Below, piece by piece: positions 5,728 to 54,445 of a DNA stretch of 64,000 bases. The translations under genes were made by a program, and so were the position numbers. The stretch covers positions 290,948 to 354,947 of the forward strand of contig DISV01000005.1 in assembly GCA_002422025.1 (NCBI GenBank), given 5' to 3'. The notes beneath the pieces were generated by a model. That model had not been told where the DNA came from and made no database searches. It saw only the letters and a program-made list of their open reading frames with translations. Source of the stretch: Patescibacteria group bacterium UBA6201. Lineage in GTDB: Bacteria; Patescibacteriota; Minisyncoccia; Phycocordibacterales; UBA918. Position 1 is the stretch's first letter; each line of letters starts with the position of its first letter.

Positions 5728-5958
5728 TGTTAGTTTTTAGTTGTTAGTTGGCAGTTTTTAGTGTCAATCGAAGTGTTTTAAACTTAAGAAATTGGATGCA
5801 TATGTGCGGGTTGAAAAAATTTTTCGAGAGAGCGACCAAGAAAATAAAGAGTGTTCACACGACTATATTTTCTAAAGTACTCTCTGTGGTGCCTTAGATG
5901 ATCTAAAGTGACCGAAAAAAATTTTGAAACTCGTGCAAAAGCACCAATTTATAGAGTT

Positions 5959-6210
<252 letters not shown>

Positions 6211-6347
6211 TTAGTTTCTAGTAGTTAATGTCTGACACTATCAACTAATAACTAATAACTTACTACTGAATAATGTTCTGCTCACGGGCAGACAGGAACC
6301 AATCAAAATGACTGACTCCTGTCCGCCTGCGATTTCTGACCTCGTGG

Positions 6348-49843: not shown

Positions 49844-50197
49844 CTAGTGCTTACACTTCCCTCGCACAGTTAACTCTAAAGATTCGGGAGTAAAACCTGG
49901 AACCTTAATCGATTTCATAATCTCAGCATCCGATACATTAAAGTGGATTACCTTATTGCAATCAGTGCAGATGGCATGATGATGATTTGCTTCTTTATAT
50001 TCATACATCGCCTCGTCTTTATCAAGGTCAAGTTTTTTTATCAAACCATCCGACACAAAGAGTTCTAAGTTCCGATATATGGTAGTCAGGTCAATCTCCG
50101 GAATTTTCTTATGAATTTCAGCCGCAGACAAAGCACAGTGCGCGTCTTTCAGCACTTTAAATATTTTTTCACGCTTTGGACTGTGGCGACGATTCAT
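49844..50197 (-). CDS. Fur-family metalloregulator (Fur/Zur/PerR)
   Basis: Winged-helix N-terminus (REKIFKVLKDAHCALSAAEIHKKI...TIYRNLELF) and a metal site HHHAICTDCNKV...CKH. Confidence 0.85.
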   Translation of the reverse strand: MNRRHSPKREKIFKVLKDAHCALSAAEIHKKIPEIDLTTIYRNLELFVSDGLIKKLDLDKDEAMYEYKEANHHHAICTDCNKVIHFNVSDAEIMKSIKVPGFTPESLELTVRGKCKH

Positions 50198-50205
50198 AAT
50201 TGAAT

Positions 50206-51138
50206 CTATTTACTCATGTCCCTTAATATCCTGATTCTTTCCGCTGCAGGTGGGTGAGTTTGGAAAAGATTAGAAATTTTCTGCCCAAGCGTACGTTTTT
50301 CAGAACCAAATGGATCGGCAATGAAAAGGTGTGCAGTAGCGTTATTAGCTCGCTTCATCGGCTGACTATAATGACTAATTTTTTCGAGCGCAGAAGCTAG
50401 ACCCTCCGGATAGCGAGTAAGTAAAGCGCCAGAGGCGTCAGCTAAATATTCACGTTTCCTAGAGATGGCTAATTGAATCATCTGCGCAGCAATCGGAGCT
50501 AATATAATGCCAACGATACCAAGTACCAAGAAGATTACTCCTGCCTTACTATCGCGATCATCACCTCCACCCCACAGCATTGAGCGCATAAAGAGGTCAG
50601 CAATAATGGCAATGAATCCTGCAAGGACAACAGCGACAGTTGAGACCAACATATCGCGGTTTCCGACATGAGAAAGCTCGTGTGCCATAACACCCTCGAG
50701 TTCAGTACGATCTAAAACCGCTAAAAGGCCAGTTGTAGCGGCCACTACAGCGTTCTCAGGATTGCGACCAGTAGCAAAAGCATTCGGAGCCGAATCATTC
50801 ACGACATACACTTTAGGCATTGGTAGACCAGCGGTAATAGAGAGGTTCTCCACGATCTGAATCAGGTCTCGGTATTCACGTGGGTCAGCCGGTTTCGCTC
50901 CCGTCATTGCAACAACAAGCTTATCACTCCACCAGTAACTGCCGACATTCATAAACAGCGCAAATGCGATGGCAACATACATTATTGAAGGATTACTGTA
51001 GTACCAGTTAAGGAAGTACCCAATAGCGATAACCAAGGCAAAGAACATCGCCATCAAAAACCAGGTCTTACGAATATTTTCAGATTGATGTGTATACAGG
51101 GTCATAATTAGTTGCTTAGTACACAGTACGCAGTACAC
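50206..51138 (-). CDS. htpX: Zinc metalloprotease HtpX (M48 family)
   Basis: HELSHVGNRD zinc-binding motif and 4 TM helices; the size is typical. Confidence 0.9.
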   Translation of the reverse strand: MYCVLCTKQLIMTLYTHQSENIRKTWFLMAMFFALVIAIGYFLNWYYSNPSIMYVAIAFALFMNVGSYWWSDKLVVAMTGAKPADPREYRDLIQIVENLSITAGLPMPKVYVVNDSAPNAFATGRNPENAVVAATTGLLAVLDRTELEGVMAHELSHVGNRDMLVSTVAVVLAGFIAIIADLFMRSMLWGGGDDRDSKAGVIFLVLGIVGIILAPIAAQMIQLAISRKREYLADASGALLTRYPEGLASALEKISHYSQPMKRANNATAHLFIADPFGSEKRTLGQKISNLFQTHPPAAERIRILRDMSK

Positions 51139-51141
51139 AGC
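51118..51141. repeat. Left inverted repeat flanking the four-helix-bundle gene (heptamer-built: agtacac/agtacgc units)
   Basis: agtacacagtacgcagtacacagcac. Its reverse complement matches 51546-51569 at about 22 of 24 positions. Confidence 0.55.
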
Positions 51142-51153
51142 ACGTCATTCTTA

Positions 51154-51507
51154 CTATACTGAGAGACTAGTTATCAGCTTATTAAGCATTTTCCGTACTA
51201 CAGTTGTCTGCTCCTGTATTCTATCAAATTCTGCGCCTCCTACTAAACTTAACTTTTTAGAGATAATAAGCTGCGTTTCTAATTCAGCACTGGACCCATA
51301 CGAAATACGAAGGAAGCGAACAAAATCTCCACTACTCTTCCTGGCATGACCCTCAGCAATATTCGATGGTATTGATACAGCACTTCTTCTCATTTGGTTA
51401 ACTAGACCGAATTTTTCACTATCAGGAAAATCGGCAGTTACTGTATATATCAATGTAACTAATTCAATACTTCTCTGCCAAACTAGAAGGTCTTGATAAA
51501 TTTCCAT
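51154..51507 (-). CDS. Four-helix-bundle protein of the rRNA intervening-sequence (IVS)-associated family (start placed at MEIYQDLLVWQ)
   Basis: MEIYQDLLVWQRSIELVTLIYTVTADFPDSEKFGLVNQMRRSAVSIPSNIAEGHARKSSGDFVRFLRISYGSSAELETQL matches the TIGR02436-type four-helix-bundle family. Confidence 0.7.
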   Translation of the reverse strand: MEIYQDLLVWQRSIELVTLIYTVTADFPDSEKFGLVNQMRRSAVSIPSNIAEGHARKSSGDFVRFLRISYGSSAELETQLIISKKLSLVGGAEFDRIQEQTTVVRKMLNKLITSLSV

Positions 51508-51545
51508 AAATTTTGTTACGTACTGCGTCCCAACGTGCTGCGTAC

Positions 51546-51569
51546 TGTGTACTGCGTCCTGTGTACTAA
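51546..51569. repeat. Right inverted repeat flanking the four-helix-bundle gene (tandem gtactgc/gtactgt heptamers)
   Basis: The block ttacgtactgcgtcccaacgtgctgcgtactgtgtactgcgtcctgtgtact contains 4-5 heptamer units. It pairs with the left repeat. Confidence 0.55.
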
Positions 51570-53267
51570 CTACCAACTTCCCCCACCACCACCCCCTGCG
51601 CCACCGCCCGAAGAACCTCCACCAGAAGAAGCTGAGACAGATGCTCCGGTAGAAGCTACTGACGAAGAAAATGTTCCCAAGCTGTTGGTCAAATAAAGCG
51701 CGGAGAAAGTAGAGCCATTCTTATCTTCGTACCAGGAAGGATTTGGGATAGTAATTCCTTCAAAAACTTTAGCCCATTCCTTCTCAACCTTAAAAGCAAT
51801 AGCATAGGGAAGATATTCCATGAATTGTTCCGGGCTTTTCTTCGGCGCATTATGGAAAGCAAAACGCTCCTTATCAGTGACCGAAAGAAATGTTTTGAAG
51901 CCTTTAAGGTAATCAAGAGCCTCATATCCCTTGCGTGTCCGGCGGCGGTAGAAGAAGGTCGCAATCACGGAACTCACCACAAAAGTAATTACGGCAATTG
52001 CAGTTGGCGTAACCATTTCTGCACCAACAATAAAGGTAGCGCCGAGCAACAACAGTAATGTAATAAGGAGAGAGGACGACAACTTAAGTGGCATTTTCCA
52101 CTTATGCTCAAAGAAACCTTGCAGAATTAAATCTGACTCGGCCGCAGACTTTAACTCTGTTAGTAATTTGTGGTTTTTTGTCACCTTACTTGTATCCTTA
52201 GCAATCTCACTTAACACGATAGTACTACCCACTGTCGCATCTTCAGCAAACAGTAAGGTAAATATTTTCTTTTGTAACTCAGTCGGAAGCTCCTCGTAGG
52301 GACGCAAAAGGGTTATCTCGTAATCATCAGTCTCTATAAAAAAGAACACCTTTCGGCCAATGTGTTTGATTTTCAGGAAACCTTGTTCAGCCAAGTAGAC
52401 AATACCAGCAGTGATATCGTGTGGGTCAATACGACCATCAAACAAGAGTCCGGTGTACATCGGCTTGAAATCTTCATATGGCTCATACTGCGCAATTATA
52501 GAAGCATCCGTTCTGTGTGCTACGTAGTACCTATATAAGAACCAAGTAAGCCAAATGAACCACAAGAATGCACCTATGAGCCACAATGGCCAAAGTGACA
52601 ACCGCTCCATAATTAATCTATCCACTAAGGTTGGATCAAGTGACAGAGCGACCGTTAGTCCCTCACCAGAATCAAGAGCCACTGGACCAAAATCAAACGC
52701 ACCCTTACCAAGTATCGAAGGACACTCGTCTGTCGAACCAGTAGGGCCGAAGTAACAGTGGTATTCGGACAAGACAAGACCTTCCTGGTCGTATACCCTC
52801 ACTAAAGCATTTTCGATTGGAACTTCCCAACCGTTACCAGTCGCATTCCAGTACAAATCCACCCCTCCCTGGTCGTAGTAAGTGAGACCACCTTCAACTG
52901 TGTAGTTAATGATATAAGTATGCTCACCACTAATGGTCTGGCTCGGGTCACCAATCTTTATTTCCAACTCTCCAATATTCTCGCTCCGCTCAAATATAGC
53001 AGTCTCACCATCTACTGACACCGAGAAGTTCACTATCTCCAGATACCGCTCTTTGAACCATTCCTCGCTTTCTTGAAAATGTTTTGTCGGTATAAAGCGA
53101 AATATTCCGTGTTTATCTTCAGACTCAAAATCGTAAACAATAGTTTCACTTACAGAGAAAGAACCATCACTTTCTAGAGTAATCTCTGAAATAAACGAAT
53201 GTATAGTCTCTGCCCTGACCGATATCGGTACTAGAATGAGGACCAATAACAGGATAAGTTTTTTCAT
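51570..53267 (-). CDS. DUF2207-family membrane protein with Gly-rich C-terminal tail
   Basis: Signal peptide, a large extracytoplasmic domain, TM helices, and a tail SSGGGSSGGGAGGGGGGSW. It is adjacent to LemA, the typical pairing. Confidence 0.65.
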   Translation of the reverse strand: MKKLILLLVLILVPISVRAETIHSFISEITLESDGSFSVSETIVYDFESEDKHGIFRFIPTKHFQESEEWFKERYLEIVNFSVSVDGETAIFERSENIGELEIKIGDPSQTISGEHTYIINYTVEGGLTYYDQGGVDLYWNATGNGWEVPIENALVRVYDQEGLVLSEYHCYFGPTGSTDECPSILGKGAFDFGPVALDSGEGLTVALSLDPTLVDRLIMERLSLWPLWLIGAFLWFIWLTWFLYRYYVAHRTDASIIAQYEPYEDFKPMYTGLLFDGRIDPHDITAGIVYLAEQGFLKIKHIGRKVFFFIETDDYEITLLRPYEELPTELQKKIFTLLFAEDATVGSTIVLSEIAKDTSKVTKNHKLLTELKSAAESDLILQGFFEHKWKMPLKLSSSLLITLLLLLGATFIVGAEMVTPTAIAVITFVVSSVIATFFYRRRTRKGYEALDYLKGFKTFLSVTDKERFAFHNAPKKSPEQFMEYLPYAIAFKVEKEWAKVFEGITIPNPSWYEDKNGSTFSALYLTNSLGTFSSSVASTGASVSASSGGGSSGGGAGGGGGGSW

Positions 53268-53359: not shown

Positions 53360-53947
53360 TTAGAATTGAACTTTCACTGGCTCTTTAGCTGCCTGTTCAT
53401 TTTCACCTAACTCAAAGTACTCACGTTCCTTGAAGTTGAACATACTACCAATTAAGTTTGATGGGAAAGATTGTAGCGCAATACCAAGGTCGCGTACGTT
53501 GCCGTTATAGAAACGACGTGCGGCTTGAATTTTGTTTTCAGTGTCAGTGAGTTCTCTTTGTAGTTCAATAAAGTTCTGGTTAGCCTTTAGATCAGGGTAA
53601 TTTTCAGCAATTGCCAAAAGTTTACCTAGTGAGTTAGTCAAAGCACCCTCAGCAGCAGCCATAGCCTGAATCTGCTCTGGAGTGATATTAGATGGGTCCA
53701 CGTGCACCGCGGTAGCCTTGGCACGCGCCTCGGTCACAGATTCAAGTGTACCTCGCTCGTGAGAAACATAACCTTTGACACTCTCAATTAAGTTTGGAAT
53801 AAGATCATAGCGACGCTTAAGTTGCACATCAATGTCCGCCCAAGCCTCCATAGCTCTTTGAGTGAGCGAAACGAAACGGTTGTATGCCCAAATAGCCCAA
53901 ACAACCACAACGGCCGCCACAATCAATAAAATAGTCATTAGTTCCAT
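53360..53947 (-). CDS. lemA: LemA family protein
   Basis: N-terminal TM helix followed by the conserved LemA region (YNRFVSLTQRAMEAWADIDVQLKRRYDLIPNLIESVKGY). Confidence 0.85.
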   Translation of the reverse strand: MELMTILLIVAAVVVVWAIWAYNRFVSLTQRAMEAWADIDVQLKRRYDLIPNLIESVKGYVSHERGTLESVTEARAKATAVHVDPSNITPEQIQAMAAAEGALTNSLGKLLAIAENYPDLKANQNFIELQRELTDTENKIQAARRFYNGNVRDLGIALQSFPSNLIGSMFNFKEREYFELGENEQAAKEPVKVQF

Positions 53948-54046: not shown

Positions 54047-54445
54047 ATGCCCTTAGTAGTGTATATAGGTGATGAGAAGGATGCTGAGAAATTAGCGACC
54101 GAACTCGGCCGAGGTGAATGCCAAGTGGGCTATTTCAGCACCAATCTGGAAAAAATGGACTGGCTCTTGTCTTTCGAGCCACCCGGCATCATGATCTGCG
54201 AATTGGATGCCGTAGAAAAGGCATTCCAGAATGACTCTGAAATCGCAGGGTACATCCAGGACGTCTCTCAAACAGATGTCCCTATCGTGCTTCTCGTGAA
54301 TGAAGGAGATTTTTCAAACACGACACCGCGCTTTACCGGTACCAGTAACGCTCGTATCAACCTTTGCATCAAAGGCGACGGGGACACAACCAGGCTCGTG
54401 AACCACGTTCATGCAGTACTTGGCCAGAAATGCCAAACGCATTAA
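54047..54445 (+). CDS. Stand-alone receiver (CheY-like) domain protein with atypical acceptor pocket
   Basis: (beta-alpha)5 pattern: LVVYIGDE... PGIMICELD ... VPIVLLVNEGD. Confidence 0.4.
   Translation: MPLVVYIGDEKDAEKLATELGRGECQVGYFSTNLEKMDWLLSFEPPGIMICELDAVEKAFQNDSEIAGYIQDVSQTDVPIVLLVNEGDFSNTTPRFTGTSNARINLCIKGDGDTTRLVNHVHAVLGQKCQTH

Follow-up and report, generated by a model that had tools for sequence, protein, structure and literature searches.

What is a gene of the intervening sequence (IVS) protein family, first found in the rRNA of Leptospira and Coxiella, doing between two protein-coding genes and inside a frame of inverted repeats? The locus that raises this question lies on contig DISV01000005.1 of Patescibacteria group bacterium UBA6201 (assembly GCA_002422025.1), within a stretch of 64,000 nucleotides (positions 290,948 to 354,947 of the forward strand) that we refer to as the window. 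Here, a gene for a 117-aa four-helix-bundle (4HB) protein is placed between htpX and a gene for a DUF2207 membrane protein, with an array of tandem heptamers on either side. A first-pass annotation of the window described this unit as an IVS-like cassette and saw its location outside rRNA as an exception. In the following, we show that the gene and its repeats have the anatomy of an IVS, and that a frame of complementary heptamer arrays is a property of the 4HB family across many phyla and viral contigs, for which a location outside rRNA is the norm. We then discuss how such a cassette might act on the RNA of its host operon, and weigh this against three other explanations. The parts of the locus on which the argument depends are as follows.

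51570-53267, minus strand: DUF2207 membrane protein gene (Pfam PF09972 and PF20990), the host gene upstream of the cassette
51570-51572, minus strand: DUF2207 stop codon (TAG), at the stem base and in phase with the first heptamers
51106-51569, minus strand: whole cassette (464 nt), consisting of 5′ heptamer arm, 4HB open reading frame (ORF), and 3′ heptamer arm
51541-51569, minus strand: 5′ (upstream) arm, TTAGTACACAGGACGCAGTACACAGTACG, from the inverted-repeat search, with a Tandem Repeats Finder (TRF) period of 7 at 51534-51567
51154-51507, minus strand: 4HB gene (117 aa plus stop; 23S_rRNA_IVP / TIGR02436 family), ATG at 51507, stop codon at 51154-51156
51116-51144, minus strand: 3′ (downstream) arm, CGTGCTGTGTACTGCGTACTGTGTACTAA, from the inverted-repeat search, TRF, and the predicted fold
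50206-51105, minus strand: htpX (M48 zinc protease), the host gene downstream of the cassette, ATG at 51103-51105, directly 3′ of the stem base

The cassette makes up the entire spacer from the DUF2207 stop codon to the htpX start. Its two arms are 29 nt long, 93% complementary, and 396 nt apart, a somewhat longer and closer match than the 22 of 24 positions noted at first. Both are built from tandem heptamers (TRF period 7/14 at 51118-51144 and 51534-51567), with AGYACRC units upstream and GYGTACT units downstream on the gene strand. The 5′ arm begins at the first base past the DUF2207 stop, so that the upstream array reads TAG (the stop), then TTAGTAC, ACAGGAC, GCAGTAC, ACAGTAC, GCAGCAC, and G, and runs on loosely to about 51519. 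The downstream array reads ACGTGCT, GTGTACT, GCGTACT, GTGTACT, and AA, and 10 nt separate the end of the 3′ arm from the htpX ATG. RNA from 51105-51585 is predicted to fold at −139 kcal/mol (z = −3.84; 0/100 shuffles as stable), with the arms as its terminal stem in both the minimum free energy and the centroid structures. The arm-versus-arm duplex alone reaches −50.1 kcal/mol, compared to −16.9 ± 4.2 for shuffled arms (z = −7.9). The long stem that was proposed from the letters is thereby supported thermodynamically. The predicted terminal stem comprises about 40 bp, as pairing extends past the arms to join 51106-51112 with AGUUGGU of the DUF2207 3′ end; in this fold, the last DUF2207 codons (AGU UGG UAG) pair with the 7 nt preceding the htpX AUG. 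Two mechanically called gene starts were rejected as over-extensions through the repeat arrays: a 140-aa 4HB ORF from TTG 51576 (reading through 51508-51576), where the family-fitting start is ATG 51507, and an htpX start at GTG 51138 (through 51106-51138), where it is ATG 51105. The over-extended 140-aa form of the 4HB protein is adopted by the public gene call P0001; the htpX gene call at locus L006 is 299 aa.

Comparison with related genomes indicates that gene and arms belong together. Loci carry working labels in this study (L001 and so forth), with WIN for the window locus. Six other contigs have a 4HB orthologue (66–79% identical) directly upstream of htpX, and directly downstream of DUF2207 wherever the contig includes the upstream gene, which brings the DUF2207–4HB–htpX loci to seven (WIN, L001, L005, L167, L169, L170, and L171). 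Complementary heptamer arms are found at all seven (z from −3.4 to −7.9), so that no orthologous gene stands without its repeats. The heptamers themselves vary, being AGTACRC in four loci, AGCAC/AGTTC in L169, TTRGTCC in L170, and of a CTAGC type in L171. Because shifts in heptamer register make column alignment arbitrary, co-evolution of the arms was judged from a matrix of cross-pairing energies, in which the downstream arms of L170 and L171, the two most diverged loci, pair best with their own upstream arms. The two arms thus co-evolve, changing in sequence between orthologues while staying complementary. Since neutral sequence would be randomized at such a distance, either selection or active homogenizing keeps them matched.

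The relatives that lack the gene lack the arrays as well. In the four that were examined (L087, L122, L097, and L103), DUF2207 is followed directly by htpX, with spacers of 37 nt in L087 and 9 nt in L122 and short, unrelated ones in L097 and L103, and heptamer arrays are absent from all of them. L087 is otherwise very similar to the window (HtpX 95%, LemA 96%, and DUF2207 88% identical), yet it has neither gene nor arrays, and its spacer contains no cassette remnant (alignment score below the mean of shuffles). The glycine-rich C-terminal tail of DUF2207, ending in GGGGSW before the stop (also given as GGGGGSW; window 51573-51600), is kept in relatives with and without the cassette. Gene and both arms therefore come and go as one unit. 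In the tree, L087 is sister to the window and L088 is sister to L001, while L122 is also nested among carriers; the simplest reading of this pattern would be at least three losses of the whole cassette, the alternative being its repeated site-specific gain between DUF2207 and htpX.

Presence and absence of an entire cassette among close relatives would also suit a mobile element that acts at the level of DNA. Here, the arrays would be terminal repeats or cruciform sites, and a transposase, recombinase, or reverse transcriptase acting in trans (possibly with the 4HB protein as an Avd-like accessory factor) would insert the cassette at stop codons; its arms would be kept complementary by template switching in quasi-palindromes instead of by selection on RNA. 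We consider this possible, though on the unlikely side. At the DUF2207–htpX locus, 4HB identity to the window follows that of HtpX and DUF2207 across the orthologues, over saturating synonymous distances, so the cassette has co-diverged with its host genes, and the pattern of presence and absence is best read as those three or more losses, not as recent gains. The cassette would then be vertically inherited at this site. When examined as a candidate miniature inverted-repeat transposable element or insertion sequence, it shows locus-specific arms and no direct target duplication at its junctions, and the window holds no second copy. Neither a recent copy of the cassette nor a mobility enzyme was found, and no recombinase or reverse transcriptase lies beside the 4HB gene. 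Further copies of the heptamers and a 4HB paralogue had been suggested for a search, but the rest of the 64-kb window contains neither a second 4HB gene nor a second array of the cassette heptamers.

How general is this frame? We compared the 120 nt upstream of the 4HB start with the 120 nt downstream of its stop, using 80 4HB loci from species-representative genomes of the Candidate Phyla Radiation (CPR), Bacteroidota, Planctomycetota, Acidobacteriota, Clostridia, Proteobacteria, and others. Complementary flanks (z < −3) occur at 50% of 82 4HB loci, compared to 1% of 289 control windows shifted within these loci, and at 61% of 46 non-redundant 4HB loci in viral contigs. Apart from a peak of 0.40 at lag 7 and one of 0.37 at lag 14, self-identity of the flanks stays at about 0.28, and a lag-7 run score of at least 10 is reached by 35% of flanks but by 6% of other gene boundaries at the same loci, with no other lag enriched. 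Locus by locus, tandem heptamers stand upstream and their reverse complement downstream, in a sequence that is specific to the locus even where one contig carries two cassettes. At the 41 loci with strong stems, the parts are closely packed, with the following median distances and length.

Between the stop of the upstream gene and the 5′ arm: 2 nt
Between the 5′ arm and the ATG of the 4HB gene: 29 nt
Between the stop of the 4HB gene and the 3′ arm: 20 nt
Between the 3′ arm and the start of the following gene: 13 nt
Length of an arm: 25 nt

Taken together, these comparisons point to the complementary heptamer-array frame as a family-wide property of 4HB genes, shared by many phyla and by viral contigs. 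They also revise the idea that a location outside rRNA is exceptional: 60 of 78 4HB loci lie between co-directional ORFs, and no rRNA was found at the 20 loci that are poorest in ORFs, a sample biased by the frequent lack of rRNA operons in metagenome-assembled genomes. The window itself contains no rRNA (Rfam). For the 4HB family, a location outside rRNA is thus the norm.

The same survey bears on two of the other explanations. In many bacteria, heptanucleotides are more common than any other long simple-sequence repeat (PMC4679880, PMC4692102), and the atp operon of the window contains other heptamer arrays, which might suggest that the arms are chance intergenic repeats unrelated to the 4HB gene. 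The statistics exclude this, leaving it a practically negligible probability: the arms of the window pair far beyond their shuffled versions, complementary flanks are found at 50–61% of 4HB loci and at 1% of controls, the arrays are absent together with the gene in relatives, and of 357 gene boundaries in CPR loci selected through HtpX, just 1 carries a heptamer run. For a mobile element, the survey speaks in both directions, as the 4HB family is scattered between unrelated genes in many phyla and viral contigs, while the arms are locus-specific even on one contig, unlike what a sequence-specific transposase would leave behind. In L015 (440-793 and 2130-2495) and L076 (149-508 and 2983-3342), two 4HB cassettes are separated by one host gene, and each has different heptamers; L021 (1847-2212 and 3436-3822) has the same arrangement of two cassettes around a single host gene. 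Arms of a GGGAATC type occur in L016, L073, and L077.

The heptamers have a further feature in common, which is the phasing of stop triplets. When read on the sense strand, 62 of 82 loci have a G-rich flank upstream and a C-rich one downstream (p = 3e-9), because TAG and CTA are phased within the arrays: upstream flanks contain 172 TAG and 67 CTA (p = 8e-12), downstream flanks 47 TAG and 158 CTA (p = 3e-15). Successive TAGs are spaced by exactly 7 nt in 57 cases, with at most 18 for every other spacing. The stop codon of the co-directional upstream gene is in phase with the array and is TAG at 59% of 4HB loci, compared to 23% of other ORFs at the same loci (p = 3e-7), and at some loci the array reaches into the end of the upstream ORF. 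As 7 is not a multiple of 3, three heptamer units can close all reading frames, which they do in 45 of 82 upstream arms. A three-frame stop was considered as the full account of the 7-nt period and rejected, as it covers only these 45 arms and not that of the window; at best, it is part of the answer. Junctions at or in phase with TAG stops, and arrays that enter the upstream ORF, would also be expected of an element that inserts at stop codons. The strong asymmetry between TAG and CTA on the sense strand, however, points away from a mobile element and to a constraint that is read on mRNA.

How might such a frame act? The explanation that we favor on balance is an IVS-type 4HB cassette that is co-transcribed with its operon and whose stem loops the insert out or lets RNase III excise it. 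In the window, lemA, DUF2207, the 4HB gene, htpX, and fur form a co-directional block, with all five genes on the minus strand. Its outer members are the following.

53360-53947, minus strand: lemA, first gene of the co-directional block
49844-50197, minus strand: fur, downstream of htpX

The neighborhood of about 4 kb around the 4HB gene encodes GroEL, LemA, DUF2207, HtpX, Fur, and RNR. A terminator scan found no terminator-like site in any spacer of the lemA–fur block; its only two hits are at 54096-54111, upstream of lemA, and at 51037-51052, within the htpX coding sequence. With no evident promoter or terminator of its own, the cassette would be read within the operon transcript. Pairing of the arms on this RNA would give a duplex of between 29 and about 40 bp that sets the DUF2207 stop codon beside the htpX start and loops the insert out. 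The duplex would have the length of a bacterial RNase III substrate, and RNase III may cut within it, as in the IVSs of 23S rRNA, resulting in a hairpin-ended 4HB mRNA and in separated flanking cistrons. Alternatively, if the stem is not cut, ribosomes that end at the DUF2207 stop could unwind the base of the stem and expose the htpX start, resulting in translational coupling. The TAG-phased heptamers would, in addition, provide stop signals in all three frames at the entry of the cassette. In the loop between the upstream arm and the 4HB ATG, several viral contigs (L177, L191, L195, L205, L210, L211, L217, and L222) have a TAnnTTTG motif, a Bacteroidota promoter type (e.g. ttagtaattttgca), which suggests that these viral cassettes carry their own promoter, unlike the cassette of the window.

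Several observations weigh against this RNA-based explanation. A significant stem is missing at about half of the 82 4HB loci, so the stem is not obligatory for a 4HB gene. Stems (z < −3) are found at 36 of 68 loci with a co-directional upstream gene and at 3 of 11 with a divergent one, which amounts to a trend only (Fisher p = 0.19). In the window, TAG occurs in the first two units only, the internal AGTACRC heptamers are free of stop codons, and the junction closes only frames 0 and +1, so that the three-frame stop fits the 4HB family better than it fits this locus. Mismatches in the stems comprise 25 G:U and 25 A:C pairs; as there is no excess of G:U, selection on pairing in RNA specifically is not demonstrated, and a process at the level of DNA could match the arms, which favors the mobile-element explanation described above. 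We infer co-transcription of the cassette with the operon and formation of the stem on that RNA, and, by analogy, RNase III processing at the window cassette. No homologue of RNase III (rnc) is encoded within the 64-kb window, but this result has no bearing on the remainder of the genome.

The protein inside the frame is a member of its family, as the earlier assignment to the IVS four-helix bundles had it. It matches PF05635 (E = 7.7e-38; 129.4 bits, cutoff 33.8; residues 5-110 to model positions 1-106), TIGR02436 (E = 2.4e-37; 127.5 bits, cutoff 24), and NF008911 (139.9 bits, cutoff 137). The family is very large, with at least 7998 members, as 7998 of 8000 scored candidates reached E ≤ 1e-3. 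The RxxxSxxxNxxE motif described for 4HB proteins (PMC3936711) is present as R41, S45, N49, and E52, which are invariant in our alignment of 4HB proteins. Among solved structures, the protein matches PDB 2GSC (XCC0516; E = 1.2e-24) and 2RLD (E = 1.4e-5). Compared to its orthologues, it has a dN/dS of 0.04–0.2, and because dS is saturated while dN is only 0.12–0.37, it is under purifying selection. Of the earlier proposal that the cassette is an autonomous selfish or structured unit, the structured unit stands, while autonomy and selfishness are not borne out, given this selection and the co-divergence with the hosts. No PADLOC defense family matches the protein at E ≤ 0.01, and it is not a known defense protein. 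It is homologous to Avd of diversity-generating retroelements (DGRs) (PHROG 3206, E = 1.5e-8; PF22296 (bAvd), E = 5.7e-4, 20.8 bits against a cutoff of 40), and this homology would suit a mobile element as well. A role as the Avd of a DGR was rejected, with no reverse transcriptase or template/variable repeats nearby and a bAvd score below the cutoff. Avd binds nucleic acid, as known from work on DGRs, and by homology the 4HB protein might do so too.

This leads to a third alternative, in which the heptamers are binding sites for an oligomeric 4HB protein, serving autoregulation or protection of the transcript, and the stem is secondary. A few to about ten tandem units stand beside the gene in almost every lineage, and their exact 7-nt periodicity is not required by base pairing alone. 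The nucleic acid binding of Avd would fit as well. Furthermore, XCC0516, a relative of solved structure, forms a homopentameric ring (PMC4990558), and the 2GSC entry has 5 chains. We think this explanation quite improbable nevertheless, as it leaves the complementarity of the arms and the abutment of the 5′ arm on the upstream stop unexplained. In addition, the heptamers vary widely between loci while the conserved residues of the protein are nearly invariant, so specific recognition would rest on little beyond TAG/CTA.

Heptamer arrays without a gene are also found near 4HB cassettes. Within 3 kb of these, gene boundaries carry ORF-less hairpins of inverted heptamer arrays (up to −55 kcal/mol), located as follows.

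L023, 1537-1671: ORF-less hairpin
L035, 1838-1945 and 4047-4159: two ORF-less hairpins
L066, 3800-3904: ORF-less hairpin
L073, 1266-1344: ORF-less hairpin with the heptamer GGGAATA, identical to that of the adjacent cassette

Heptamer runs occur at 13 of 215 boundaries near 4HB cassettes, compared to 1 of 357 in the HtpX-chosen CPR loci (p = 2e-5); since the two sets differ in taxonomy, this excess is a lead and not proof. For the mobile-element explanation, nearby ORF-less hairpins of the same build resemble non-autonomous derivatives. One might go further and speculate that 4HB genes and heptamer hairpins are one previously unrecognized, bacteria-wide system. In such a system, the 4HB protein would act in trans to build, maintain, or exploit inverted TAG-phased arrays at gene boundaries, with ORF-bearing cassettes as the autonomous members and ORF-less hairpins, including short rRNA IVSs and the convergent GGGAATC pairs of Xanthomonas, as the non-autonomous ones. 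We regard this as a doubtful proposition, but if true, it would explain both the excess of heptanucleotides in prokaryotic genomes and the function of IVS proteins.

Some further arrays and neighboring ORFs were noted along the way. In the atp operon of the window (minus strand), an array of five CTAAnAA heptamers (5728-5762) lies directly upstream of the atpF start, and a weak ORF-less hairpin of AGTTATT-type heptamers (6187-6290; fold z only −1.2) lies between atpB and atpE. These arrays are of the kind of repeat seen in 4HB arms and carry no gene. A solitary array of four TAACCTN units occurs between lemA and htpX in L136 (3464-3501), a relative without the 4HB gene. ORFs that fill the lemA–htpX gap in other relatives were considered as diverged 4HB genes and rejected, as they encode MazG-like or DUF5684 proteins. 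The MazG-like ORF (103–129 aa; weak PF01503/PF12643) follows lemA in L088, L089, L090, L092, L094, L095, L100, L101, L104, L116, and L120, and an ORF of the same type is found in L001 (1854-2231), while the window is without it; several relatives that have it do not have DUF2207.

These findings have several consequences for how 4HB genes are read. As they are routinely annotated as ordinary operon neighbors, the cassette architecture calls for caution with annotation by guilt-by-association; a 4HB gene between cmr3 and cmr2, for example, has been read as CRISPR-associated (PMC3936711). The architecture furthermore provides a concrete model of RNA processing or translational coupling, and a lead on the abundance of heptanucleotide repeats in bacterial intergenic DNA.

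How does the cassette compare to known systems? Its closest counterpart is the ORF-bearing IVS of 23S rRNA (Leptospira, Coxiella burnetii, and the Xanthomonas-type S23p), which has the same protein family in its loop. The Coxiella IVS measures 428 nt; its terminal stem of 28 bp is cut by RNase III at mid-stem, its loop contains the S23p ORF, and it has two to three tandem GACAGAT heptamers upstream of the ORF, in a copy number that varies between strains (PMC4990558). The window cassette matches this anatomy of gene and arms, as the first-pass annotation had recognized: 464 nt compare to 428–444 nt, the terminal stem of the IVS is about 28 bp, and tandem heptamers precede both ORFs. The differences lie in the host transcript (an mRNA operon for the window cassette, rRNA for the IVS), in the stem base (a stop codon and start region instead of an rRNA helix), in the ORF (under purifying selection, while that of Coxiella is decaying and probably untranslated), and in the cleavage by RNase III, which is demonstrated for the rRNA IVS and proposed by analogy for the cassette. 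Since the defining location is rRNA, the window cassette is IVS-like but not an rRNA IVS.

Avd of DGRs has a homologous four-helix-bundle fold (PMC10053308), but the window 4HB gene has no reverse transcriptase or template/variable repeats nearby. Correia/NEMIS, ERIC, and REP/BIME elements likewise sit in the spacers of operons, where they are transcribed along with the genes and fold into hairpins; among them, Correia elements serve as substrates of RNase III, and REPs carry a GTAG head. However, these elements occur as many near-identical, ORF-less copies per genome with a dedicated transposase, whereas each 4HB cassette has its own heptamer sequence and a conserved ORF. Heptanucleotide arrays are described as the cyanobacterial STRR sequences, in Nostoc, as GGGAATC in Xanthomonas (about 70 convergent pairs), and as TAACTGA in Beggiatoaceae (PMC4692102, PMC4679880). 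These are also intergenic, often directly upstream of starts, and sometimes convergent pairs that could form stems, but they share one sequence per genome, while those of 4HB cassettes are locus-specific; the two studies mention none of the terms 'S23', 'helix bundle', and 'intervening'.

4HB genes outside rRNA are already known from annotation. Members of the family have been recorded inside CPR rRNA insertions as well (PMC11270868). Inverted TAG-phased heptamer arrays as the usual frame of non-rRNA 4HB genes were not found described in the open literature; a prior description in subscription journals is possible. The window locus itself thus belongs to an already known kind of element, and what appears new is the family-wide architecture of matched, TAG-phased arrays that fit exactly into the gap from a stop codon to the start that follows, with the rRNA IVS as one special case of a general cassette that resides in operons.

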